This document shows, one piece after another, positions 1-9,373 of a stretch of DNA of 9,373 nt. The notes beneath the pieces were generated by a model, which ran no database searches, had not been told where the DNA came from, and saw nothing but the letters and a program-made list of their open reading frames with translations. Within the stretch, counting starts at the first letter, position 1. Each line of letters opens with the position of its first letter. The position numbers and the translations under genes are program-made. Source of the stretch: a virus (taxonomy: Duplodnaviria > Heunggongvirae > Uroviricota > Caudoviricetes); the IMG/VR virus record IMGVR_UViG_2563366846_000008, one strand, 5' to 3'.

Positions 1-750
1 ATGAGACGTGTTTTCTTGTTCACGCTGACGTGTGTTACAACTCTAATGTCTTTCGCTGTAGTTGCTGATAAGGGCGAACGCATGGACTTCGTTGCTGCAA
101 ATCAATGTCGGAGTCAGCCGGATGATGCAAAGCGGATAGAATGTTATGACAAAGCTGTAACTCCAACACGCACTAAAACATTAGAAAAGTTTGACAGCAG
201 GGATCAATGCAGGGAGGAGGCGTGGGAGAAAAAAAGGCTGTCTTGCTATGATCGTTTTTTTTCTCCAACATTCACTAATGCCAAAGTTGACAAAGTACAT
301 GAAGACAGTAGGGATGTTGGGAACTGGAAGGTTGATATAAAAACATCTCCAATCGATGACTCTAAAAATGTTGTTATCTTTGTTAATGGTAATGATTCTT
401 TTAGATCCCCGTTTGGAGACAACATAACCCCAACTCTTTATATTGCGTGTAGGGAAAATAAAACAGAACTGTTTATAGATTGGGATGTATACTTGGGGCT
501 GAACCAAACTACGATGATTCATCGAATAGATAAACAAAAAGCCATAAACAGAGAGTGGTCTATTTCAACAAATACAAAGGCCGTCTTTTATGATGGCAAT
601 GTGATTGATTTTATAAGAAAGTTACAAAATGGTAATCAGCTATTTGCTCAGATAACCCCATATAGTGAAAGCCCGGTGAGCACAACCTTTAATCTCAAAG
701 GTCTTTCTGAAGTTATTAAACCATTACAAGAATCATGTAACTGGAAATAA
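1..750 (+). CDS. Secreted hypothetical protein with N-terminal signal peptide and tandem Cys-pair repeats; A+T-rich cargo gene
   Basis: ORF from ATG at position 1 to TAA at 748-750 (249 aa). N-terminus MRRVFLFTLTCVTTLMSFAVVA looks like a Sec signal peptide. Two copies of a C-x12-C-Y-D motif (QCRSQPDDAKRIECYDK and QCREEAWEKKRLSCYDR). Visibly more A+T-rich than the tail genes. The upstream region is outside the window, so RBS and true start cannot be checked. Confidence 0.7.
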   Translation: MRRVFLFTLTCVTTLMSFAVVADKGERMDFVAANQCRSQPDDAKRIECYDKAVTPTRTKTLEKFDSRDQCREEAWEKKRLSCYDRFFSPTFTNAKVDKVHEDSRDVGNWKVDIKTSPIDDSKNVVIFVNGNDSFRSPFGDNITPTLYIACRENKTELFIDWDVYLGLNQTTMIHRIDKQKAINREWSISTNTKAVFYDGNVIDFIRKLQNGNQLFAQITPYSESPVSTTFNLKGLSEVIKPLQESCNWK

Positions 751-773
751 CTATTGGTGTTGTTTTCCGAATA

Positions 774-804
774 ATAGCCCCGCAATTGTATATTGCGGGG
801 CTAT
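774..804. terminator. Bidirectional intrinsic terminator between convergent genes
   Basis: Perfect 13-bp inverted repeat ATAGCCCCGCAAT (774-786) / ATTGCGGGGCTAT (792-804) with a 5-nt loop TGTAT, followed by TGTTTG on the + strand. Sits between the stop of the 1..750 gene and the stop of the 828..1124 minus-strand gene. Confidence 0.6.
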
Positions 805-827
805 TGTTTGGGTCTGATTGTCAGGCA

Positions 828-1124
828 TCAGCCATATTTACGGGCAAAATCTTCATCAGAGGTGCATAGATAGATAAAAAATTCAATAAATGCCACGATT
901 GCCGGAATGAATGTCCAGCAAAAAATAAGGTAAAGGAATCCTTGCCCCACTTTACCTAAATAAAATTTGTGTGCACCAAGACCACCTAAAAAGAAAGCCA
1001 GTAGTGCGGCTGTCATTCTGCTTTTTGAACTTGCTGTTCTTTGAGGTGCTCCACAATTGGGGCAGGATGTGGCATCTTTATGTATTTCCTTGCCGCATCC
1101 GCGACAAAATACCATTTCACTCAT
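828..1124 (-). CDS. Zinc-ribbon plus TM2-domain small membrane protein (NINE/YozV-like)
   Basis: 98-aa ORF. N-terminal CxxC...CxxC zinc ribbon (CRGCG...CPNCG) followed by a TM2-type hydrophobic core (LLAFFLGGLGAHKFYLGKVGQGFLYLIFCWTFIPAIVAFIEFFIYL). RBS AAAGGAA about 7 nt upstream of the ATG at 1124 on the minus strand. Convergent with the 1..750 gene and shares its terminator. Confidence 0.8.
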   Translation of the reverse strand: MSEMVFCRGCGKEIHKDATSCPNCGAPQRTASSKSRMTAALLAFFLGGLGAHKFYLGKVGQGFLYLIFCWTFIPAIVAFIEFFIYLCTSDEDFARKYG

Positions 1125-1157
1125 AAAGAGTTCCTTTCAAATTTAAACAAGCGTTAA

Positions 1158-1180
1158 GCCCACCACTCTTACTGGTGGGC
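1158..1180. other. GC-rich stem-loop (8-bp stem GCCCACCA/TGGTGGGC, 7-nt loop) flanked by an 8-bp direct repeat AATTTAAA
   Basis: Inverted repeat read directly: GCCCACCA at 1158-1165 and TGGTGGGC at 1173-1180. AATTTAAA occurs at 1140-1147 and again at 1184-1191. Lies between the hok-like ORF and the TM2 gene; could terminate the hok-like transcript on the minus strand. Confidence 0.35.
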
Positions 1181-1228
1181 CTCAATTTAAATTTGGGTGC
1201 CACTTCGACCTTACCCTGGCAACCGATT

Positions 1229-1251
1229 GACGGGGGATTGCTCCCCCCGTC
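1229..1251. other. GC-rich stem-loop immediately 3' of the hok-like ORF (minus-strand sense)
   Basis: GACGGGGG (1229-1236) and CCCCCGTC (1244-1251) form an 8-bp stem with a 7-nt loop. It lies about 10 nt downstream of the hok-like stop codon on the minus strand. Hok-family mRNAs carry structured 3' ends, but this assignment is inference. Confidence 0.35.
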
Positions 1252-1260
1252 GCGGTTTCC

Positions 1261-1401
1261 TTACTGCTTACACTGTAAGAACGCCGCAAACTCCGCTCCC
1301 CAGAAGCTCATCCGTATTTCACACAGCGAACCGTGCAGCATCCAGATGATGAGGATTGCCGTCACGCAGAACGTGATGGCCGTAAGCGATTTTTGCGACA
1401 T
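1261..1401 (-). CDS. hok: Hok/Gef-family type I toxin (small membrane toxin), not in the supplied ORF track
   Basis: Manual minus-strand translation from the ATG at 1401-1399 to the TAA at 1263-1261 gives 46 aa: MSQKSLTAITFCVTAILIIWMLHGSLCEIRMSFWGAEFAAFLQCKQ. It has one hydrophobic transmembrane stretch followed by SLCEIR...AAF, which matches the Hok-family pattern as I recall it (R1 Hok ...KSLCEIR...EVAAF...; HokA-like ...AAFLACK). RBS AAGGAG about 9 nt upstream. Overlapped by a longer upstream ORF in another frame, as mok overlaps hok. Confidence 0.55.
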   Translation of the reverse strand: MSQKSLTAITFCVTAILIIWMLHGSLCEIRMSFWGAEFAAFLQCKQ

Positions 1402-1504
1402 AGCGCTTGCTCCTTTTTCGGGGAGGCGCTAACCTATCACTTGCTAAGGGTAGATGGTTAGGGCCTCGGGTTAACGTTAAAGTTGACTCGGGGCTTTTCC
1501 ACAT
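1319..1504 (-). CDS. mok-like overlapping leader reading frame upstream of and overlapping the hok-like ORF
   Basis: 61-aa minus-strand ORF (MWKSPESTLTLTRGP...) starting at 1504 and overlapping the hok-like ORF (1401-1261) in a different frame, as mok does with hok in plasmid R1. Sequence is not recognisably conserved; called on architecture only. Confidence 0.3.
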   Translation of the reverse strand: MWKSPESTLTLTRGPNHLPLASDRLAPPRKRSKRYVAKIAYGHHVLRDGNPHHLDAARFAV

Positions 1505-1592
1505 CTGGCCTTCGGGTATTCCCTCCGACCATCAGCCGAAAGGCACCCGCGCGTAATCTATCGCTTTTTTGTTACTCCGGCAATTCTGCCTG

Positions 1593-1853
1593 TTAATTCT
1601 GAGGTAAAGGCAAACTCATCTGATTGTTTCCCCTGTGTGAAGCTGGCAGCTCATGCCACGGGATACCTTCTGAAGAGTGAACGCCGGAGGCGTGTTTTGA
1701 TGTGAATTTATGGAAAGCTTCCAGTGTTGAGAAGCATACGCCGCATTCCAGATTGTTACACTGGTAATACTTTTGCCGCACGGTGTTTGAATCATTTTCC
1801 GGACGACTGGTGCGGATACGGGCAGATGCGCCACAAAGCGGACAACGGAACAT
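1593..1853 (-). CDS. ogr: Ogr/Delta-family zinc-finger late-gene transcription activator
   Basis: 86-aa ORF beginning MFRCPLCGASARIRTSR...YYQCNNLECGVCF, the CxxC...CxxxxC zinc-finger N-terminus typical of P2 Ogr. Consensus SD AAGGGAGG 5 nt upstream of the ATG at 1853. Sits immediately downstream of gene D on the same strand, as in P2. Confidence 0.85.
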   Translation of the reverse strand: MFRCPLCGASARIRTSRPENDSNTVRQKYYQCNNLECGVCFSTLEAFHKFTSKHASGVHSSEGIPWHELPASHRGNNQMSLPLPQN

Positions 1854-1895
1854 AGCGACCTCCCTTAACGTGGTGCTGCCGCTATTCTAAGTTGC

Positions 1896-3005
1896 TCACT
1901 CTGTTTCCGCTATCCATTCCGGGATTTTTGCCTCAAGCTCAAGCTGCGTGGTAAAGCCACTGTTATCAATGGTGTGCTCGGCTTTCGCAATAATCCAGTC
2001 CTGATTATCAATCTCGCTTTTAAATCCTGTTACCGTGCCATGCATTTCGGGGTAGAGTTCTGCTCGTCCACGTGCCAGCGTGATGGAGAATGATGCGGCT
2101 CCGCGTTGTAGTTGTTGCCACTTTGCCGCCGCTGCGCGTCTTGCTGCCTGCTCGTTCTGATAAGTCTTGCGTAACACAAACACATTGCCTTCCGCGCCTT
2201 CCATATAATCACCTTCACGGCTGCTGCTTTTCTCCTTTTTGGGCTTGGGCGGTTTGCGGCGTTTCACGCTGACTTTTTTCTTTTTCCCGTAATTAAGATC
2301 AAGCCAGTAAGCGCGTACCCCCGTATACGCTTCGCGGTCAGCAATGCGGAACTGATGGCGATCGCCGCTGCTGCGTGTAATGGCGAACGATGGCAACGGC
2401 TGGCCCTGTGCGTTCACGCCACCGCCGGGCATGATGAATAACAGATTACCGCTTTTTACCGTGGTGATTGCGCCCAGCATTTCCGCCATGCGCGTAAGGA
2501 AGGACATGTCACTTTCTTCGGTCTGGTCGGCGTGGTCGATTTCGATATCCATCAGCATTTCGCTGATTTGCGGTTTCAGACCGTACCGATGAGCGATGGC
2601 GGATACCACACGCTCAACGGTCACATCATGCCAGGACACCTCACGTTTAACGTTAAATTCATCCCGAAAATCTGCGCTTCTGGCTGAAACAGTCAGCCTG
2701 TCCGGCGGTCCTTCGTGAGCGATTTCATCAACAATGTAAGTGCCTTTTTCTGTCAGCGGTTCTCCTTTCCAGCCAATGAGAACCGTCAGGCGCGCGCCCC
2801 GTGGCGGTAGCTGCAACTGACCATCCGCATCATCCAGCGTGATGGTGAGCTGGTCTGCTTCAAATCCCCGGTTGTCGGTCAGTGACAGACTCATCAGGCG
2901 CTCTGCCACGCCGGACAGCGTTTCCCCCTCCGCGAGAATATCAAAATCCGGCATTTTCACGGGGTCTGTGCTCTGACTGAGCAATTGCATGGTGGTGTCG
3001 GTCAT
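1896..3005 (-). CDS. D: Phage tail protein D (gpD, late control gene D / baseplate hub family)
   Basis: Translation carries gpD-like blocks (SLSLTDNRGFEADQL..DDADGQL, SARSADFRDEFNVKREVSWHD, FLTRMAEMLG, a Lys-rich linker KKKKVSVKRRKPPKPKKEK, GFTTQLELE). Start preferred at the ATG at 3005 (MTDTTMQ...), which has a strong SD GGGAGGG 4-5 nt upstream; the in-frame ATG at 3026 has no SD. Confidence 0.9.
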   Translation of the reverse strand: MTDTTMQLLSQSTDPVKMPDFDILAEGETLSGVAERLMSLSLTDNRGFEADQLTITLDDADGQLQLPPRGARLTVLIGWKGEPLTEKGTYIVDEIAHEGPPDRLTVSARSADFRDEFNVKREVSWHDVTVERVVSAIAHRYGLKPQISEMLMDIEIDHADQTEESDMSFLTRMAEMLGAITTVKSGNLLFIMPGGGVNAQGQPLPSFAITRSSGDRHQFRIADREAYTGVRAYWLDLNYGKKKKVSVKRRKPPKPKKEKSSSREGDYMEGAEGNVFVLRKTYQNEQAARRAAAAKWQQLQRGAASFSITLARGRAELYPEMHGTVTGFKSEIDNQDWIIAKAEHTIDNSGFTTQLELEAKIPEWIAETE

Positions 3006-3161
3006 CTTTCCCTCCCTGTGCGGCATGGTCGCATGTGCGTGCGGAGTGGGTTACTGCTTTTTGTTGTCGCCGTGGCGGGAGAACGGCGCAGGGGTGAGAT
3101 TACGCGCGTGGTGGGTGATGATTGTTGCCGAATCATTTAACGGATACAAGGGGCTGAAGCT
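3006..3161. promoter_or_regulatory. Divergent intergenic region between D (-) and FI (+); presumed late promoter region for the sheath operon
   Basis: 156-bp non-coding gap between two divergently oriented genes with strong RBSs on both sides. Contains a GC-rich dyad CGCCGT-N9-ACGGCG (3068-3088). No clean Ogr-type TGT-N12-ACA box was found by eye, so the promoter call is positional inference only. Confidence 0.35.
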
Positions 3162-4346
3162 ATGAGTGAAACTCGTTTTCATGGTGCCCGTGTCACGGAA
3201 AGTACCGACCTGGTAACAGCGATTAATGATGTTGATTCCAGCGTTATCGGTATCGTGGCAACGGCGGATGATGCGGATGCGGAGCTGTTCCCGCTGAACA
3301 AGCCCACACTGCTGACCCGCGTCAATGACGTGCTGGGAAAATGCGGTACTACGGGGACGCTTTATCGTGCGCTTAAGGCTATCGCAGACCAGGTGAGCAC
3401 AAAGGTGATCGTCGTTCGCGTGGCTGAACACAAAAAAGAAGGCGGTAAGACGCAGGATCAACTGGTTATCGGTGGTTCTGAGGATGACGGCAGCTATACG
3501 GGGATGTATGCGCTGCTTGTTGCAGAGCAGGATGAAAGCATCGGATACCGTCCGCGCATTCTGGCTGCGCCGGAGCTGGACACGGAGGCGGTGACAAAAT
3601 CTCTGTGCGTGATTGCAGGTAAACTGCGCGCGTTTGTGTATGCCTCATGTCATGGCTGTGACACGATGGCCGAGGCAATTACCTACCGCCAGAAATTCAA
3701 CGAACGTGAGGTGATGCTCTTATGGCCGGACTTTATCGCCTACAACCCGAAAAGTGGCAAAAACGAAACGTTCCCCGCGCCTGCCTATGCGTGCGGCCTT
3801 CGTGCGTACATTGACCATGAGCAGGGCTGGCACAAATCGCTGTCCAACGTTCCGGTTAAAAATGTGCTGGGGATGTCCAGGCATGTGTTCTGGTCGTTGC
3901 AGGCCGAAGACAGTGATGCCAACAGCCTCAACAACAAAGAAATCACGACCATTATTCGTCGCAACGGGTTCCGCTTCTGGGGCAACCGCACACCGGAAAC
4001 GAACGCCTACATCTTTGAGGTGTATACCCGAACCGCACAGGTGCTGGCTGATTCAATTGCGGAAGCGCAGTTTGAAACCATCGACAGTCCACTGACGCCT
4101 GCGAACGTGAAGGATGTTATCAGTGCCATCAGGGCAAAACTGGATTCACTGGTTACTGCCGGGAAACTGATTGGTGCGGAGTGCTGGTATGACGTGGTGG
4201 ATAACGGCACCACGAATTTACGTCAGGGGCGTGTGCGTATTCGCTACAAATATACGCCTGTTCCCCCGCTGGAAGACATGGAGCTTTACCAGTCGTTTAC
4301 TGATGAATTCTTTGGTCCCGCATTTGCGGTGCTGGGAGGTGCCTGA
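3162..4346 (+). CDS. FI: Contractile tail sheath protein (P2 gpFI family)
   Basis: 394-aa ORF with RBS AAGGGG 8 nt upstream. Conserved sheath blocks (FPLNKPTLLT, KLRAFVYASCHGC, YRQKFNEREVMLLWPDF, HEQGWHKSLSNV, IRRNGFRFWGNRT, YKYTPVPPLEDM) match P2 FI as recalled. Stop TGA overlaps the FII start (TGATG). Confidence 0.95.
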   Translation: MSETRFHGARVTESTDLVTAINDVDSSVIGIVATADDADAELFPLNKPTLLTRVNDVLGKCGTTGTLYRALKAIADQVSTKVIVVRVAEHKKEGGKTQDQLVIGGSEDDGSYTGMYALLVAEQDESIGYRPRILAAPELDTEAVTKSLCVIAGKLRAFVYASCHGCDTMAEAITYRQKFNEREVMLLWPDFIAYNPKSGKNETFPAPAYACGLRAYIDHEQGWHKSLSNVPVKNVLGMSRHVFWSLQAEDSDANSLNNKEITTIIRRNGFRFWGNRTPETNAYIFEVYTRTAQVLADSIAEAQFETIDSPLTPANVKDVISAIRAKLDSLVTAGKLIGAECWYDVVDNGTTNLRQGRVRIRYKYTPVPPLEDMELYQSFTDEFFGPAFAVLGGA

Positions 4347-4858
4347 TGGCTGTACCAAAACATCTTCGCTTTTTTACGTTGTTTGTGGATGGTGAAAACG
4401 AAGTGGGTAAAGTGACATCCGTCACGCCGCCCAAACTGACGCGCAAAACCGACAGCTATCGTGGTGGTGGCATGATGGGGGCAGTAAGTATTGATCTCGG
4501 TCTGGACGACTCCGCACTTGATGCGAGTTTTGTCATGGGGGGAGCTGTTCGTGCGCTGTTCCTTAAATATGGCGGCACGATTGACGGCACGCTGCTGCGT
4601 TTTGCGGGTGAATACTACACCGATGCAGAAAGCGATCTGTATGAAATCGAGATGCGCGGGCGTGTGACGGAAATTGATATGGGGGAAGCCAAACAGGGCG
4701 AAGCCACATCACACACTTACGCTGTCAAAAACACCTACTACAAGCTGAGCGTTAACGATCGCCCGCTGTGGGAAATCGACCTGTTGAACCACATCTACCG
4801 GAAGGACGGCAAGGACATTGTGCCTGACCGCATCCGTTCCGCGCTTGGGCTTGGCTGA
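4346..4858 (+). CDS. FII: Tail tube protein (P2 gpFII family)
   Basis: 170-aa ORF translationally coupled to FI (ATG overlaps the FI TGA; GGGAGG 6 nt upstream). Motifs VTPPKLTRKTDSYRGGGMMGAVSIDLGLDD and LRFAGEY...EIEMRGRVTEIDMGEAKQGE resemble P2 FII. Size and position immediately after the sheath gene fit. Confidence 0.95.
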   Translation: MAVPKHLRFFTLFVDGENEVGKVTSVTPPKLTRKTDSYRGGGMMGAVSIDLGLDDSALDASFVMGGAVRALFLKYGGTIDGTLLRFAGEYYTDAESDLYEIEMRGRVTEIDMGEAKQGEATSHTYAVKNTYYKLSVNDRPLWEIDLLNHIYRKDGKDIVPDRIRSALGLG

Positions 4859-4871
4859 TAAGTAATATGCA

Positions 4872-4890
4872 GGCGGCGCAGTGCGTCGCC
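4872..4890 (+). other. Intergenic stem-loop between tube gene and gene E (possible attenuator or mRNA-stability element)
   Basis: GGCGGCGC (4872-4879) / GCGTCGCC (4883-4890) forms an 8-bp stem with one G-U pair and a 3-nt loop. It is not followed by a T-run, so it is not a canonical intrinsic terminator. Confidence 0.35.
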
Positions 4891-4913
4891 TCTGACTGAA
4901 AAGGAGACAACTG

Positions 4914-5288
4914 ATGAAAGACATCGATACTGAAACCCGGAATAACACCGTGGCGGATGATGTGACGGCAGGTGAGGATATGGCTGTCGAACGTGGCGTA
5001 AAACTGACCCGACCAATTGAGCGTGGTGGCGAAAAAATCACGTATGTGGAGATCACCGGGGCTATTGAACAGGCTGGATCCCTGCGTGGTCTGTCGCTGT
5101 CTGATGTGCTGAATCTGAAAGCGGATACCATGTTCACGCTGTTGCCTCGCGTGACCTCGCCACGACTGGATGAAGTGATGATTAAAAAAATGTCGTCACG
5201 CGATTTTATTCAGTTGTGCGCTGTGGCTGTAAATTTTATGAGCGAGCCAGACTCTGGCGCGAAGAGCGTGCAGGCGACGGCAGCGTAA
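4914..5288 (+). CDS. E: Tail assembly chaperone gpE (zero-frame product)
   Basis: 124-aa ORF with RBS AAGGAG upstream. Lies between tube and tape-measure genes, the conserved position of the tail chaperone. Its 3' part is overlapped by a -1 frame that is open from 5186 to 5452. Confidence 0.85.
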   Translation: MKDIDTETRNNTVADDVTAGEDMAVERGVKLTRPIERGGEKITYVEITGAIEQAGSLRGLSLSDVLNLKADTMFTLLPRVTSPRLDEVMIKKMSSRDFIQLCAVAVNFMSEPDSGAKSVQATAA

Positions 5289-5452
5289 TCACCCTGGTGT
5301 GCTTTGAGCACATCGAAGATCTGGTGGCAGATATCGCCGCCATTTTTAACTGGTCGCCCGCCGAAATCTTCATGATGACGCCCGGCGAAGTGGTTAGCTG
5401 GCGTGAGCGGGCGGCACTTCGCAGCGGGAATGCAGACAATGAAGACTCTTGA
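4914..5452 (+). CDS. E+E': gpE+E' tail chaperone fusion made by programmed -1 ribosomal frameshift
   Basis: The -1 frame relative to E is open from 5186 (after TAA at 5183-5185) to TGA at 5450-5452 and overlaps the start of T. Candidate slip sites inside the overlap are the A7 run at 5184-5190 and the heptamer A_AAT_TTT at 5231-5237. The chaperone frameshift between tube and tape-measure genes is conserved in long-tailed phages and known in P2 E/E'. The exact slip site is not determined. Confidence 0.6.
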
Positions 5453-8246
5453 TATCCGGGTCGCTTTCAGCGCCGTTGACAGGCTGACCCGGCCTGCCGA
5501 AAACGCCCGCCGCCTGATGGGGCAGTTTGGTGACTCCATCCAGCGAACGCAGGGGGCGATCAAAAATCTCGAGCGTCAGGCGCGATCATTTGAGCGCGCC
5601 CGCGACGCTGTCAGTAAAGCGGATGCGGGTATCGTGAAAGCACGACGCCAGCTTAACGCCCTTAATCAGTTACAACGCACGGGTACAGTGCTCAGCGAAA
5701 AACAACAAAAGCTGATGCAGCAGTTAAGCACCCGGCTTGAACGCCTGAATGAATCGCGCACACGGGAAATTCAGAAAATGCGGGAGCTTGGCGGAGAGCT
5801 GAAACGCCACGGCATTTCCCTGACAGGCAGCGATAACACCATCCAGCAGGCCATCAGACGCACCGAACAGTACAACAACCAGCTTGAACGTGAACGGCAG
5901 GCGCTTGCGCGTGTAACGCGGGCGCGTGAGCGGTATTCGCGCACGCAGGAAACAGCGGGAAAACTGAAAACAGGTGGTGCGCTGGCAATTGGTGCGGCAG
6001 CGGCTGGCGGCTATGCTGCCGGGCGTTTTTTGCAGCCCGCTATCGGGTTCGGGAAAGAGATGTCCCGCGTTCAGGCGCTGACGCGAATCGACCAGAACAG
6101 TCCACAGTTTAAGGCGCTGCGTGAACAGGCGTTAAAACTTGGCTCTGAAACGCAGTTCACCGCAGGCGATGCCGCCAGTGGGCAGGCATTTCTGGCAATG
6201 GCTGGTTTTACTCCGCAGGCCATTCAGGCTGCGCTCCCTGGCGTACTGAGCATGGCAACGGCTGGCGGTATGGACCTCGGCGAGACGGCGGATATTGGCT
6301 CAAATATTCTGACGCAGTTCGGTCTTTCTGCTGACCAGATGGACCGGGTCGGCGACACACTCACTGCAGCGTTTACCCGTACCAACACTGACCTTCGCGC
6401 ACTGGGCGAAACCATGAAATATGCAGGCCCGGTGGCAGGTAAGCTGGGAATATCGCTGGAGCAGGCCGCAGCGATGGCGGGCGTGCTGGCGAATATGGGG
6501 ATCAGGGGGAGTGATGCTGGCACAGCGTTGCGTAAAAGCCTTGCCAATCTGTCATCGCCGCCAAAGGCGGCAGCAGAAGCTCTGAAAGAGCTGGGAGTGG
6601 CTGTCTCTGATGCGAACGGCAAAATGCGCCCGATGGAGGATGTGCTGGTCGACCTTTATAAAGCCACCCGCAAATACGGGGAAGTTGACCGGGTATCCTT
6701 CTTTAAGGACATCGCCGGAGAAGAGGCTTTCACATCATTTATGGCCCTCGTTGATGCGGCGGGTAACGGCTCCTTACCCAAACTGAGAAAAGAACTTGAG
6801 GGCGCACGCGGTGAGGCTGAACGCACGGCAAAAGTTATGGCCGACAACCTTGATGGCGATCTGAAATCACTCGGCAGTGCATGGGAAGGGTTGCGCATCC
6901 GCATTGCAGATCTGATTGATGGTCCGCTGCGTTCTGTCACGCAGTGGCTCACGCGGGTGGTCTCAAAAGTGACGGCACTGGCGCAGGCCCATCCGGCACT
7001 GACACGCCAGTTACTGATAGCAGGCGGTGCGTTACTGGCAATGACTGCAACGATTGGCTCGTTGTCGCTGGTTATTGGGGTGCTTTACGGGAAACTGGCC
7101 ACCTTGCGTCTTGGTTTCGACATTCTTACCCGGTCAATGAATGTCGTCAGGGTGTTGCCTGCGCTGTGGGGAATGGTGACGGGTTCTGTTTCTTTGCTGG
7201 GAGGCGCTATCGGGGCGCTGTTCAGTCCGGTTGGTCTTATCGTGGCTGCGCTTGCCGGAGCTGCCGTTCTTATCTGGAAATACTGGGATCCCATCAGGGC
7301 ATTTTTTGCCGGGGTGTTCAGCGGGATTATGGAAAGGCTGACCCCGTTGCGCGAAACCTTTGAACGGTTTGGTCCTGTTTTTGACGCAATCGGAAGCGGG
7401 ATAAGCCAGGTGTTTAACTGGTTTAAATCGCTGCTGTCACCGATGGAGTCCAGCAAGGAAACGCTGGATAAATGTACCAGTGCTGGCGAGATATTCGGTA
7501 ACGTTCTTGGTGGCGCGCTACAGCTTGTTCTGACGCCTGCAAAAATGTTGCTGGATACGCTGGCGTGGATACTTGAAAAACTCGGTGTGCTTCCGGATGA
7601 AGCGGAAAGGGCGAGAAAGAAAATCGAAGACGCACAGCGTGCGGCCATTCTTCAGGACAAGGTTGCTCTGTTTCAGGGAGACATTGCGAAAATCAATCCG
7701 CCGAAGTCCGCGGAAAATGGCAATGGCACCGGAGGCGATAACCCCAAAGATAACAAACCGCTCACAGACAGCAATACCGGCACGCTACGCAGACTCAGCA
7801 AAATTGCTGATAACACAGGTAAGCTGGTTGATGAGACAAAAAAACGTATTGGCCCCGGCGATATTGTCTTTAAGAACCTGCCCCGCGCACTTGCTGTTCG
7901 TGGGGAGTGGCAGGAGCGGAAGATTGCGCAGGTCAGTAAACCTGCTTCCGCAATCAACATCACACCCGTGGTCCCGACTCCGCTGCCTCCGGCGCTGGTC
8001 CCTGTTGTTGCGGCCAGCTCCCGCCCGGTGGCGGAGGCCATACGATCGCCAGTGGCATCAGTTCCTGCAACTTCCCGTAACCGGGAGCCTGTTGCCTCCG
8101 GATTTGGCGGTGAAATTCATGTTCATCTGCATAACGTTGTTACGCAGAATCCCCGCGAACTGGCGAAACTGGTCGGTGAAATGGTCAGGGCAGAGACGGA
8201 ACGGCGCACCCGTGCCGGACGTGGCAGTTTTTACGATAAAGATTGA
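5439..8246 (+). CDS. T: Tail tape measure protein (P2 gpT family)
   Basis: Long ORF of about 935 aa from the preferred ATG at 5439 (GGGA about 9 nt upstream); alternative in-frame starts at 5430 and 5403. Coiled-coil-like N-terminal third, central tape-measure core region, two long hydrophobic segments (LIAGGALLAMTATIGSLSLVIGVLYG and GAIGALFSPVGLIVAALAGAAVLIW) and a Pro-rich C-terminal region. Start overlaps the end of E'. Confidence 0.9.
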   Translation: MKTLDIRVAFSAVDRLTRPAENARRLMGQFGDSIQRTQGAIKNLERQARSFERARDAVSKADAGIVKARRQLNALNQLQRTGTVLSEKQQKLMQQLSTRLERLNESRTREIQKMRELGGELKRHGISLTGSDNTIQQAIRRTEQYNNQLERERQALARVTRARERYSRTQETAGKLKTGGALAIGAAAAGGYAAGRFLQPAIGFGKEMSRVQALTRIDQNSPQFKALREQALKLGSETQFTAGDAASGQAFLAMAGFTPQAIQAALPGVLSMATAGGMDLGETADIGSNILTQFGLSADQMDRVGDTLTAAFTRTNTDLRALGETMKYAGPVAGKLGISLEQAAAMAGVLANMGIRGSDAGTALRKSLANLSSPPKAAAEALKELGVAVSDANGKMRPMEDVLVDLYKATRKYGEVDRVSFFKDIAGEEAFTSFMALVDAAGNGSLPKLRKELEGARGEAERTAKVMADNLDGDLKSLGSAWEGLRIRIADLIDGPLRSVTQWLTRVVSKVTALAQAHPALTRQLLIAGGALLAMTATIGSLSLVIGVLYGKLATLRLGFDILTRSMNVVRVLPALWGMVTGSVSLLGGAIGALFSPVGLIVAALAGAAVLIWKYWDPIRAFFAGVFSGIMERLTPLRETFERFGPVFDAIGSGISQVFNWFKSLLSPMESSKETLDKCTSAGEIFGNVLGGALQLVLTPAKMLLDTLAWILEKLGVLPDEAERARKKIEDAQRAAILQDKVALFQGDIAKINPPKSAENGNGTGGDNPKDNKPLTDSNTGTLRRLSKIADNTGKLVDETKKRIGPGDIVFKNLPRALAVRGEWQERKIAQVSKPASAINITPVVPTPLPPALVPVVAASSRPVAEAIRSPVASVPATSRNREPVASGFGGEIHVHLHNVVTQNPRELAKLVGEMVRAETERRTRAGRGSFYDKD

Positions 8247-8258
8247 GGAGTCATGGTT

Positions 8259-8747
8259 ATGATGATGATCTACGGCATGTTTGTTTTTGAGCTGCGCACA
8301 CTGCCGCATCAGCAGTTACAGCAAAACAAAAGCTGGCGGCATGTGAAAAATGAACGCGTTAACCGTTCAGCAAGCTGGCAGTATATCGGTGCAGGTGATG
8401 ATCGCATCGTGCTTTCCGGCGTGCTTTATCCTGAAATTACAGGTGGCGAAGTGTCGCTTTCGTTGCTGACCACGCAGGCATATACAGGACGCCCCTGGCC
8501 TCTGATTGATGGTGTCGGGCAGATTTACGGCATGTATGTACTGACTGAAACGAATACGACCCGTTCCGAGTTTGATCGCTACGGTAAGGCGAAAAAGATA
8601 GAATTTTCACTGACTCTTGAACGCTGTGATGAGGATTTGCGGGAGCGCCTGCAATCCTCATCGTTCAGTGATATGCTGTCCGGCTTCAAAGATAAGGTCA
8701 CATCATCCCTTAACAGCGCGGCCAGCTCCGTTAAAGGGCTGTTTTGA
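8259..8747 (+). CDS. U: Tail protein U (P2 gpU family)
   Basis: About 162 aa from the ATG at 8259 (SD GAGGAG ends at 8250; in-frame ATGs at 8253, 8262 and 8265 are alternatives). Motifs FVFELRTLPHQQLQ, WRHVKNERV, GRPWPLIDGVGQIYGMYVLTE and KIEFSLTLER resemble P2 gpU. Directly follows T. Confidence 0.9.
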   Translation: MMMIYGMFVFELRTLPHQQLQQNKSWRHVKNERVNRSASWQYIGAGDDRIVLSGVLYPEITGGEVSLSLLTTQAYTGRPWPLIDGVGQIYGMYVLTETNTTRSEFDRYGKAKKIEFSLTLERCDEDLRERLQSSSFSDMLSGFKDKVTSSLNSAASSVKGLF

Positions 8748-8754
8748 TTAACGC

Positions 8755-8784
8755 AAAACCGCTAATGGTCAGATTAGCGGTTTT
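8755..8784. terminator. Intrinsic terminator of the tail operon; overlaps the invertase stop codon
   Basis: Perfect 12-bp inverted repeat AAAACCGCTAAT (8755-8766) / ATTAGCGGTTTT (8773-8784) with a 6-nt loop. On the + strand the stem ends in TTTT followed by CATTTTCC. It sits 8 nt after the U stop. The minus-strand invertase stop (plus-strand TTA at 8774-8776) lies inside the right arm. Confidence 0.55.
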
Positions 8785-9373
8785 CATTTTCCTGAGTCTG
8801 CCTGGTTGTTTCTTCAGCCTGTATATCGCCTACAGGGTGATAACGATAAATCGTCGATATGCCGATGTCGTAAATGATCGCCAGTTGTTTCCTGTCATGA
8901 CCGTTTTTAATCAGCCTCGCTATTTGCTCGTGTTGTTCTTTTGTCAACTTCGGGCGACGTCCGCCAATGCGTCCTTGTGCGCGTGCTGCTGCCAGCCCGG
9001 CCAGTGTACGCTCTACAATTAATTCACGTTCCATTTCGGCTAAAGCCCCCATGACGTGAAAAAAGAAACGCCCCATGGGTGTTGATGTGTCAATGCTGTC
9101 CGTCAGACTACGGAAATTAACACCTTTTTCCCGCAATTCCTCAATAAGCGTGATCAGGTGTTTCATACTTCTGCCCAGTCTGTCCAGCTTCCAGACAACC
9201 AGCGTATCTCCTTCTGATAGCGTTCTGAGCAGTTTTTTCAATCCCGGTCTGGCTGATTTCGTTCCGCTGATTTTATCTTCAAAAATCAGTTCACATCCTG
9301 CGCAGTTCAGTGCATTGCGTTGTAAATCCGTGTTTTGGTCATTTGTTGACACACGAATATAGCCAATTTGCAT
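8774..9373 (-). CDS. Serine DNA invertase of the Hin/Gin/Cin/Pin family
   Basis: 199-aa ORF starting exactly at the last base of the window. N-terminal catalytic motif IGYIRVSTNDQNTDLQ (catalytic Ser) and conserved blocks GDTLVVWKLDRLGRS, DSIDTSTPMGRFFFHVMGALAEMERELIVERT and GRIGGRRPKLT, with a C-terminal helix-turn-helix region. As recalled it is closest to Pin of e14 and Gin of Mu. Confidence 0.92.
   Translation of the reverse strand: MQIGYIRVSTNDQNTDLQRNALNCAGCELIFEDKISGTKSARPGLKKLLRTLSEGDTLVVWKLDRLGRSMKHLITLIEELREKGVNFRSLTDSIDTSTPMGRFFFHVMGALAEMERELIVERTLAGLAAARAQGRIGGRRPKLTKEQHEQIARLIKNGHDRKQLAIIYDIGISTIYRYHPVGDIQAEETTRQTQENENR

Follow-up and report, generated by a model that had tools for sequence, protein, structure and literature searches.

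An exported VasI/TagO-family protein of an orphan clade is carried as accessory cargo at the end of a P2-like Escherichia coli prophage

What is a member of a protein family known from type VI secretion systems (T6SS) doing at the end of a P2-like prophage? The question is raised by the first open reading frame (ORF) of a 9,373-nucleotide stretch of DNA from a virus of the Caudoviricetes (IMG/VR record IMGVR_UViG_2563366846_000008; hereafter the window), which corresponds exactly to positions 10001-19373 of the locus L009 (contig KB732282.1 of GCA_000350745.1). The ORF, at 1..750 on the plus strand, has an ATG start and encodes 249 amino acids plus stop. Its relative in phage phiSM has been tabulated, untested, among virulence cargo genes as a T6SS VasI-family member (PMC6456863), and a 2026 review of T6SS accessory factors gives the function of TagO/VasI as unknown (PMC13584744). 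We find that the window protein is an exported member of the VasI/TagO family (PF11319) with an IalB-like fold, and that it belongs to an orphan clade. Its family identity together with its status as prophage cargo we hold with high confidence. The family itself and its carriage by phages at the level of annotation were already known; new here are the two-hairpin member, the split of PF11319 into T6SS and orphan clades, the repeated finding of the orphan clade at the ends of P2-like prophages, and a testable hypothesis of phage exclusion. A literature search for TagO together with prophages turned up the chromosomal T6SS-2 gene alone.

Family membership rests on a match to the Pfam VasI profile over its full length (66.5 bits against a gathering score of 26.5, E = 3.1e-18; residues 69-248 on profile positions 1-184 of 184) and on a match to the phage protein family phrog_1848 (E = 4.4e-38; residues 99-249 on positions 18-166 of 166). 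The top fold match of the window protein is IalB from Bartonella henselae (PDB code 3dtd), with which it shares 15% identity over an aligned region that leaves out the N-terminal hairpins described below. The score against Pfam IalB (PF06776) is 19 bits, below the cutoff of 22.1, and a sequence search of the PDB with the window protein returned only noise. The resemblance to periplasmic IalB/VasI-like proteins, which the initial annotation had offered only tentatively, holds for VasI by profile and for IalB by fold.

Export is predicted from a Sec-type signal peptide composed of MRR, a hydrophobic core (Kyte-Doolittle maximum of 2.1 in windows of 12 residues) and VVA preceding DK. This hydrophobicity profile, and an AxA-type cleavage site retained in homologues, bear out the signal peptide of the initial annotation. 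Lipoprotein anchoring through Cys11 was considered and ruled out, as Cys11 lies within the signal peptide, is unconserved and does not belong to a lipobox. The N-terminal part of the mature protein holds two copies of a cysteine motif, CRSQPDDAKRIECYD (residues 36-50) and CREEAWEKKRLSCYD (residues 70-84). The duplication had been recognized initially, with a spacing of x12; both copies in fact read C-x11-C-Y-D. Among 200,000 residue shuffles, none contained two copies of the motif and 71 contained one, and the 29-residue internal repeat aligns without gaps at a score of 69, where shuffles average 19.4 (z = 12.2). The AlphaFold2 model (mean predicted local distance difference test score, pLDDT, of 80) folds these copies into two helix-turn-helix hairpins, followed by the expected β-rich C-terminal domain with pLDDT values of ~90-97 over residues 120-240.

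When the N-terminal 83 residues are isolated, they match positions 1-30 of the Pfam VasI profile twice, which identifies hairpin 1 as a duplicate of the family's own N-terminal element. Hairpin 1 is the extra copy relative to one-hairpin members and is missing from homologues of 200-218 residues. Hairpin 2 is the canonical element; it aligns with CRRESAALERLDCYD of the Sakai T6SS VasI, and at least 90% of homologues retain its residues C70, R79, L80, C82 and D84. A profile search returned 6266 representatives at 50% identity (E ≤ 1e-3), and more than one matching stretch was present in only 3 of the best 150, so that multi-hairpin forms are a small offshoot of a large family. Cys246 in the terminal ESCNWK segment had initially been regarded as a lone cysteine. 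It has, however, a conserved partner in Cys150 (YIACREN): of 47 homologues, at least 90% retain each of C70, C82, C150 and C246, and all four are also present in the Sakai VasI. From this conservation we infer a third disulfide, C150-C246, as very probable.

Within PF11319, the window protein stands apart from the T6SS members. Against TIGR03360, the T6SS VasI equivalog, it scores 57.5 bits and misses the cutoff of 124.2, as do three of its relatives, two of them phage-borne (43.6-75.4 bits), whereas ECs_0222, flanked by ClpV and TssM within the T6SS cluster of E. coli O157 Sakai, scores 257.4. Species-representative genomes (one per species) were scanned with a 10-sequence alignment as query, and 66 loci were returned. 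All eight loci resembling ECs_0222 are inside T6SS clusters, while none of the 58 resembling the window protein has a T6SS marker within 10 kb, with the qualification that markers were taken from the E. coli T6SS-2 cluster alone and very divergent systems could escape detection. Seven of the 58 are ends of P2-type prophages and 51 are other contexts. A census of neighbours for 46 of these 51 non-phage, non-T6SS loci, together with the locus L099, revealed no T6SS family and no recurrent partner; the 92 neighbours contain 107 Pfam families, each occurring in at most two of them. No T6SS gene is present among the called genes of the window or of the 10 kb upstream. PF11319 therefore divides into a T6SS-embedded clade and an orphan clade that contains the window protein.

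The T6SS proteins VCA0118 and ECs_0222 share with the window protein the Pfam family, export, the C-x11-C-Y-D spacing, the two cysteines of the β-domain and a C-terminal C-x-W. They differ from it in having one hairpin instead of two, and the identity to ECs_0222 is only 21%. The settings differ as well: the T6SS gene is G+C-rich and located between tssH and tssM, and the window gene is A+T-rich and located in a prophage. In Sakai, the G+C content (GC) of vasI exceeds that of its flanks (0.638 versus 0.569), whereas orphan-clade genes fall below their flanks in every locus sampled, by ~6-17 points in P2-type loci. The window gene has a GC of 0.384 between flanks of 0.54, and a third-codon-position value (GC3) of 0.340. 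As judged by eye in the initial annotation, this is well below the tail genes D, FI, FII, E, T and U, with GC of 0.495-0.565 and GC3 of 0.545-0.600.

The chromosomal flank upstream of the gene is 99.6% identical to E. coli and carries a cysQ-like gene, ytfJ, ytfK, ytfL, msrA, tamA, tamB and ytfP. From ~1195 onward, the window is 91-95% identical to the Xuanwuvirus phages P88, P88_4B11 and Shae_phiSM. The complete genome of E. coli RM8082 has an equivalent prophage inserted between ytfP and chpS and bounded by two copies of the sequence CACCTTCGGGTGGC (at 442 and 37143 of the locus L098). This 14-bp attachment (att) core is the stem-loop of the intrinsic ytfP terminator. Of 5426 complete E. coli genomes, 5198 have an intact copy of the empty ytfP-chpS junction as rebuilt from the RM8082 flanks, with best matches at 100% identity. 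In the lysogen under study, the core is found at L009 9841-9854 and is followed by a 67-bp arm common with phage P88 and then by unique sequence; the boundary of this prophage rests on the one core, with the RM8082 pair as the model for both ends. The VasI ATG lies 146 bp inside the core. The gene is thus the first gene inside the left end of a P88-like (Xuanwuvirus) prophage integrated at the E. coli ytfP terminator hairpin.

Several other boundaries were tried and rejected. A second att pair, formed by a hairpin plus AATTTAAAT upstream of the VasI gene and at 1150-1200, would have made VasI and the adjacent TM2 gene a separate islet; the true core is the ytfP hairpin, and positions 1151-1175 lie just downstream of hok. 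Homology to E. coli seemed to extend to 79 bp before the ATG, and the longest of these matches proved to be other lysogens carrying the 67-bp phage arm, the host-phage junction being the 14-bp core. An ssrA-type att site in the G+C-rich stretch at 1175-1500 turned out to be the hok locus. Scans of the window for tRNA and tmRNA genes and against Rfam yielded nothing.

The allele of the window is absent from all 5426 complete E. coli genomes. The exact protein occurs in 85 blocks from draft genomes and metagenomes; all eight contexts listed for it read ytfP, VasI, TM2, hok, ogr, D. An allele of 87% identity occupies the same slot between att and hok. The contents of this slot differ among phages that are otherwise 91-95% identical. 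P88 and RM8082 carry DUF4177 and YidD-like proteins there, and P88, which lacks the VasI gene, shows that the gene is dispensable for the phage. FHI_NMBU_03, integrated at flk, has RES and Zn-ribbon proteins with a 297-residue TagO, and P88_4B11 has gp33-35 with a Zn-ribbon protein and a 297-residue TagO that adjoin the integrase, the TagO gene lying between integrase and hok. E. coli DSM 103246 carries a DNA methyltransferase, Com and TM2, so that the TM2 gene also travels without VasI, beside a methyltransferase and a Com-family regulator. The 297-residue proteins (phiSM ORF1 and P88_4B11 gp37) belong to the orphan clade, with about 45-56% identity to the window protein depending on the alignment, and their genes are likewise A+T-rich and located in the Xuanwuvirus slot between att and hok/ogr. 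They differ from the window protein in having three hairpins rather than two, and their genes are the second of a Zn-ribbon/VasI pair (4-nt gap) that reads outward towards att, whereas the window gene reads inward from att and is convergent with the TM2 gene.

This placement recurs well beyond E. coli, and nearly all of the relatives sampled are carried by phages. A Salmonella relative of 250 residues lies beside hok-ogr-D, while Klebsiella (298 and 218 residues) and Pectobacterium (247 residues) relatives follow the order ogr, Zn-ribbon, VasI, host DNA. In all, this prophage end carries the clade in E. coli, Salmonella, Klebsiella, Citrobacter, Pectobacterium, Enterobacter, Raoultella, Pantoea and Brenneria. 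Among 69 viral contigs with relatives in IMG/VR, Ogr, D, sheath or tube genes adjoin in 63 and a Zn-ribbon partner in 58; most of the relatives lie within ~1.3 kb of a contig end, and one-, two- and three-hairpin forms are all present. Outside the P2-type setting, an Orbus relative of 210 residues follows the tape-measure gene of a siphovirus-type prophage, and the most distant relatives sampled are chromosomal orphans or reside in a mobile element. The slot between att and hok/ogr is hypervariable, and the orphan VasI clade is an A+T-rich accessory gene (moron) of Enterobacterales P2-like prophages. The pairing of Zn-ribbon and VasI genes without nearby tail genes at two loci (L099 and L105) suggests that the two form a module of their own.

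Morons of the P2 family, namely old, tin and Z/fun, are likewise A+T-rich, vary in presence among close P2-like phages and are located at module boundaries. They differ in encoding cytoplasmic or unrelated proteins and in occupying other positions of the P2 map, and none of them is known to belong to the VasI family. The initial annotation had proposed horizontally acquired cargo, either as a moron at the prophage end or in an adjacent islet, and had suggested looking for conservation at P2-like prophage ends. Acquired cargo at the prophage end agrees with the flanking att core, the intact empty sites, the varying slot contents and the recurrence beside Ogr/D; the islet does not, since the gene lies within the att core. 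We also looked for a host-like GC combined with conserved chromosomal synteny, and did not find it.

Three observations on individual records may be added here. A 4.2-kb contig of the metagenome-assembled genome 'Planococcaceae bacterium UBA3378' (L100), labelled Firmicutes, carries an enterobacterial-type Zn-ribbon/VasI/Ogr/D block and is most likely a binning contaminant. In prophages with the 87% VasI allele (L165-L167, 8204-8962 on the minus strand), an α/β-hydrolase gene between ogr and gpD represents a second cargo position of this phage lineage. Finally, the product names in GenBank OR565851 (Citrobacter phage Shae_phiSM) look shifted over 165-4745: the Zn-ribbon gene is named tagO and the real 297-residue TagO homologue 'hypothetical', the gpD ORF is named ogr, and the sheath gene 'late control gene D'.

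The two E. coli alleles differ with a ratio of nonsynonymous to synonymous substitution rates (dN/dS) of 0.35, which indicates purifying selection and gives no evidence of positive selection in this pairwise comparison; dN is ~10 times that of the tail genes. Some substitutions in the 87% allele, SPIDD to SLIDD among them, affect positions that hardly vary elsewhere. A scan of the plus strand upstream of the gene found no convincing σ70-like promoter. Integration keeps the ytfP hairpin, and the T-tract GTTGTTTTTTG that follows it in the empty site is replaced by ACGAAAACTG and moved to the integrase end of the prophage. With the T-tract displaced and no promoter detected, the VasI gene may be expressed by read-through: the host tamA-tamB-ytfP transcript would continue into it, 146 bp downstream on the same strand.

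What such a protein would do for a lysogen can be approached by analogy. As the reading we prefer, we tentatively propose that it acts in the periplasm to exclude incoming phages, a role that we consider possible, if short of probable. Made in the lysogen, the VasI protein would act alone in the periplasm as a binding protein and shield the cell at the envelope by hindering the entry of superinfecting phages; the TM2 or Zn-ribbon membrane protein might be its partner. A parallel is provided by Imm and Sp of phage T4, which constitute an inner-membrane plus periplasmic exclusion pair. A functional precedent is SDIC4B, a protein from Serratia defence islands whose fold was called VasI-like by its authors, and which alone gives 10-200-fold anti-phage protection (bioRxiv 10.1101/2024.01.28.577318). 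Like the window protein, SDIC4B is small and exported and is located outside T6SS clusters; it carries a signal peptide, and of its two cysteines one is in a strand and the other near the C-terminus. It differs in lacking a hairpin and in its setting, which is next to BrxR in defence islands and not at prophage ends; no BrxR-like gene was called in the window or the 10 kb upstream. A Foldseek search also found the fold of the window protein in uncharacterized proteins encoded by lytic phages, among them RB16, KP15 and Vibrio phage VH7D, for which an accessory role in T6SS or virulence would be of little use.

Several points weigh against this proposal. PADLOC has no model matching VasI, TM2 or the phiSM pair. 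SDIC4B, whose sequence was taken from a plasmid map in the preprint supplement, has no detectable sequence or profile similarity to the VasI family (hhalign probability 0.3%; no Pfam match), which makes it a functional analogue rather than a relative by these tests, and the link in fold is the comparison of the preprint's authors. The β-domain is 42-50% identical from E. coli to Vibrio, with SPIDD and W invariant; together with a dN/dS below 1, this points to a ligand that is itself conserved and not to phage proteins, which evolve fast. The wider orphan clade resides in unrelated chromosomal contexts without a conserved neighbour, and its ancestral role may therefore have been a non-phage one. 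Expression in the lysogen is itself a prediction, and the stretch from the att arm to the ATG contains a second hairpin. Taken as one claim, identity, cargo status and exclusion mechanism seem to us moderately probable. A more specific version, which we put forward with greater doubt, is that the phage-borne orphan clade achieves superinfection exclusion by binding the tip or tube of incoming contractile machines in the periplasm, with or without a Zn-ribbon/TM2 partner, and that the number of disulfide-stabilized hairpins (one, two or three) tunes its reach or oligomerization.

Periplasmic exclusion has to be weighed against the function that current annotations imply, an accessory role in T6SS exerted in trans. 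Here the prophage VasI would, for example, substitute for or boost the chromosomal TagO of the host, and the lysogen would kill competitors or eukaryotic cells better. The shared Pfam family is in line with such a role, as is the finding that Vibrio cholerae VCA0118 is not needed for secretion of Hcp and VgrG but is needed to kill amoebae and E. coli (PMC3166118), a phenotype known for VCA0118 only. E. coli T6SS-2 contains tagO between tssH and tssM (PMC10562709), and Magaziner et al. tabulated phiSM ORF1 as T6SS VasI-family 'virulence' cargo (PMC6456863). The distance from ECs_0222, the score below the TIGR03360 cutoff, the 58 clade loci that are all devoid of T6SS genes within 10 kb, the presence of clade members in a siphovirus-type prophage and at chromosomal sites outside T6SS clusters, and the fold relatives in lytic phages render it unlikely.

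Alternatively, the protein might blunt other contractile injectors, such as the T6SS or tailocins of neighbouring cells, rather than phages. Its predicted export to the compartment crossed by contractile spikes, its carriage beside contractile-tail genes and the tie of the sister clade to T6SS would fit this role. We judge it improbable, as the argument is purely inferential, no known T6SS-immunity or tailocin-resistance protein with a VasI fold was among the matches returned, and no effector gene is adjacent. The fold match to IalB raises the further prospect of a host-interaction or virulence factor, acting in adhesion or invasion through lysogenic conversion. The molecular role of IalB itself is not established, the score against Pfam IalB misses its threshold, free-living Proteobacteria of sea and soil widely carry the clade, and nothing points to export past the periplasm; such a role is distinctly improbable. 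Lastly, a plain flanking gene of the chromosome, or a passenger in decay and without function, which the lack of an identified promoter and the altered near-invariant positions of the 87% allele might suggest, is rendered very improbable, and in its flanking-gene form largely refuted, by a position within the att boundaries, an empty site that lacks the gene, an intact ORF of identical sequence in the collection blocks and under purifying selection, and recurrence at one prophage end across the enterobacterial genera listed above.

The elements of the VasI protein and the genes that follow it are collected in Table 1. The hairpin between the convergent VasI and TM2 genes, which a simple terminator scan did not list, is probably a bidirectional terminator. 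The TM2 gene holds the position occupied in most related loci by a Zn-ribbon membrane protein, and its product resembles the phiSM Zn-ribbon protein only over the Zn ribbon; dN/dS between its two alleles is ~0.96, with few changes. The hok gene lies between TM2 and ogr and is conserved in P88-like phages, and homology to sequenced phages begins just upstream of it, at ~1195; Rfam called no antisense sok-like RNA in the window. The ogr-gpD unit (1593-3026, minus strand) is divergent from the sheath-tube-E-T-U unit (3162-8747, plus strand). In P2, D and ogr come after U in the same orientation; the unit is inverted in all P2-type prophage loci whose gene order was examined.

Table 1. Elements of the VasI-family protein and neighbouring features, in window coordinates
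Feature	Position	Strand	Evidence
Predicted Sec-type signal peptide, residues 1-22	1..66	+	Cleavage VVA/DK predicted; hydrophobicity profile
Helical hairpin 1, residues 29-55, C36-x11-C48-Y-D	85..165	+	Model helices 30-38 and 42-52; VasI profile 1-30
Helical hairpin 2, residues 63-89, C70-x11-C82-Y-D	187..267	+	Model helices 67-72 and 76-86
IalB-like β-domain, residues 101-249	301..747	+	Invariant W109, S116, D119, D120 (TSPIDDSKNV); conserved pair Cys150/Cys246
Hairpin with 20-bp stem between VasI and TM2 genes	767..811	.	RNA fold -40.7 kcal/mol, z = -8.4, 0/200 shuffles as good
Membrane protein with N-terminal Zn-ribbon and TM2 domain, 98 residues	828..1124	-	Pfam TM2 68.6 bits; Zn_Ribbon_1; phrog_10292
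Hok/Gef-family toxin gene, 46 residues	1261..1401	-	HOK_GEF Pfam match; annotated in E. coli and phage records
Ogr/Delta late-gene activator	1593..1853	-	Pfam Ogr_Delta 52.4 bits
gpD tail/baseplate hub	1896..3005	-	Pfam Phage_GPD; 93-95% identity to Xuanwuvirus phages

Further along the window, gpE (4914-5288, plus strand) is followed by a short GpE-family ORF (5297-5452, plus strand) that overlaps the start of the tape-measure gene, the layout expected for the programmed frameshift of P2 E/E+E'. A DNA invertase of the Hin/Gin type (Resolvase plus HTH_7) is encoded at 8774-9373 on the minus strand. Beyond 18.7 kb in the loci L004-L011, tail-fibre and fibre-assembly genes are differently oriented among similar lysogens, which is consistent with the fibre region being an invertible host-range segment; no invertase gene was called in L005, L007 or L011.

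The 58 clade loci without T6SS linkage and the recurrence at the Ogr/D end change how T6SS and virulence annotations are to be read in pathogen genomics. VasI with either the Zn-ribbon or the TM2 protein provides a compact and easily cloned candidate for an envelope-level phage-exclusion module, and a phenotype for the phage copy could inform on the T6SS copy of TagO/VasI. If the orphan clade indeed binds the tip or tube of contractile machines, the whole VasI/TagO family would consist of periplasmic proteins that meet contractile devices, and a testable function would follow for vasI/tagO of the T6SS.

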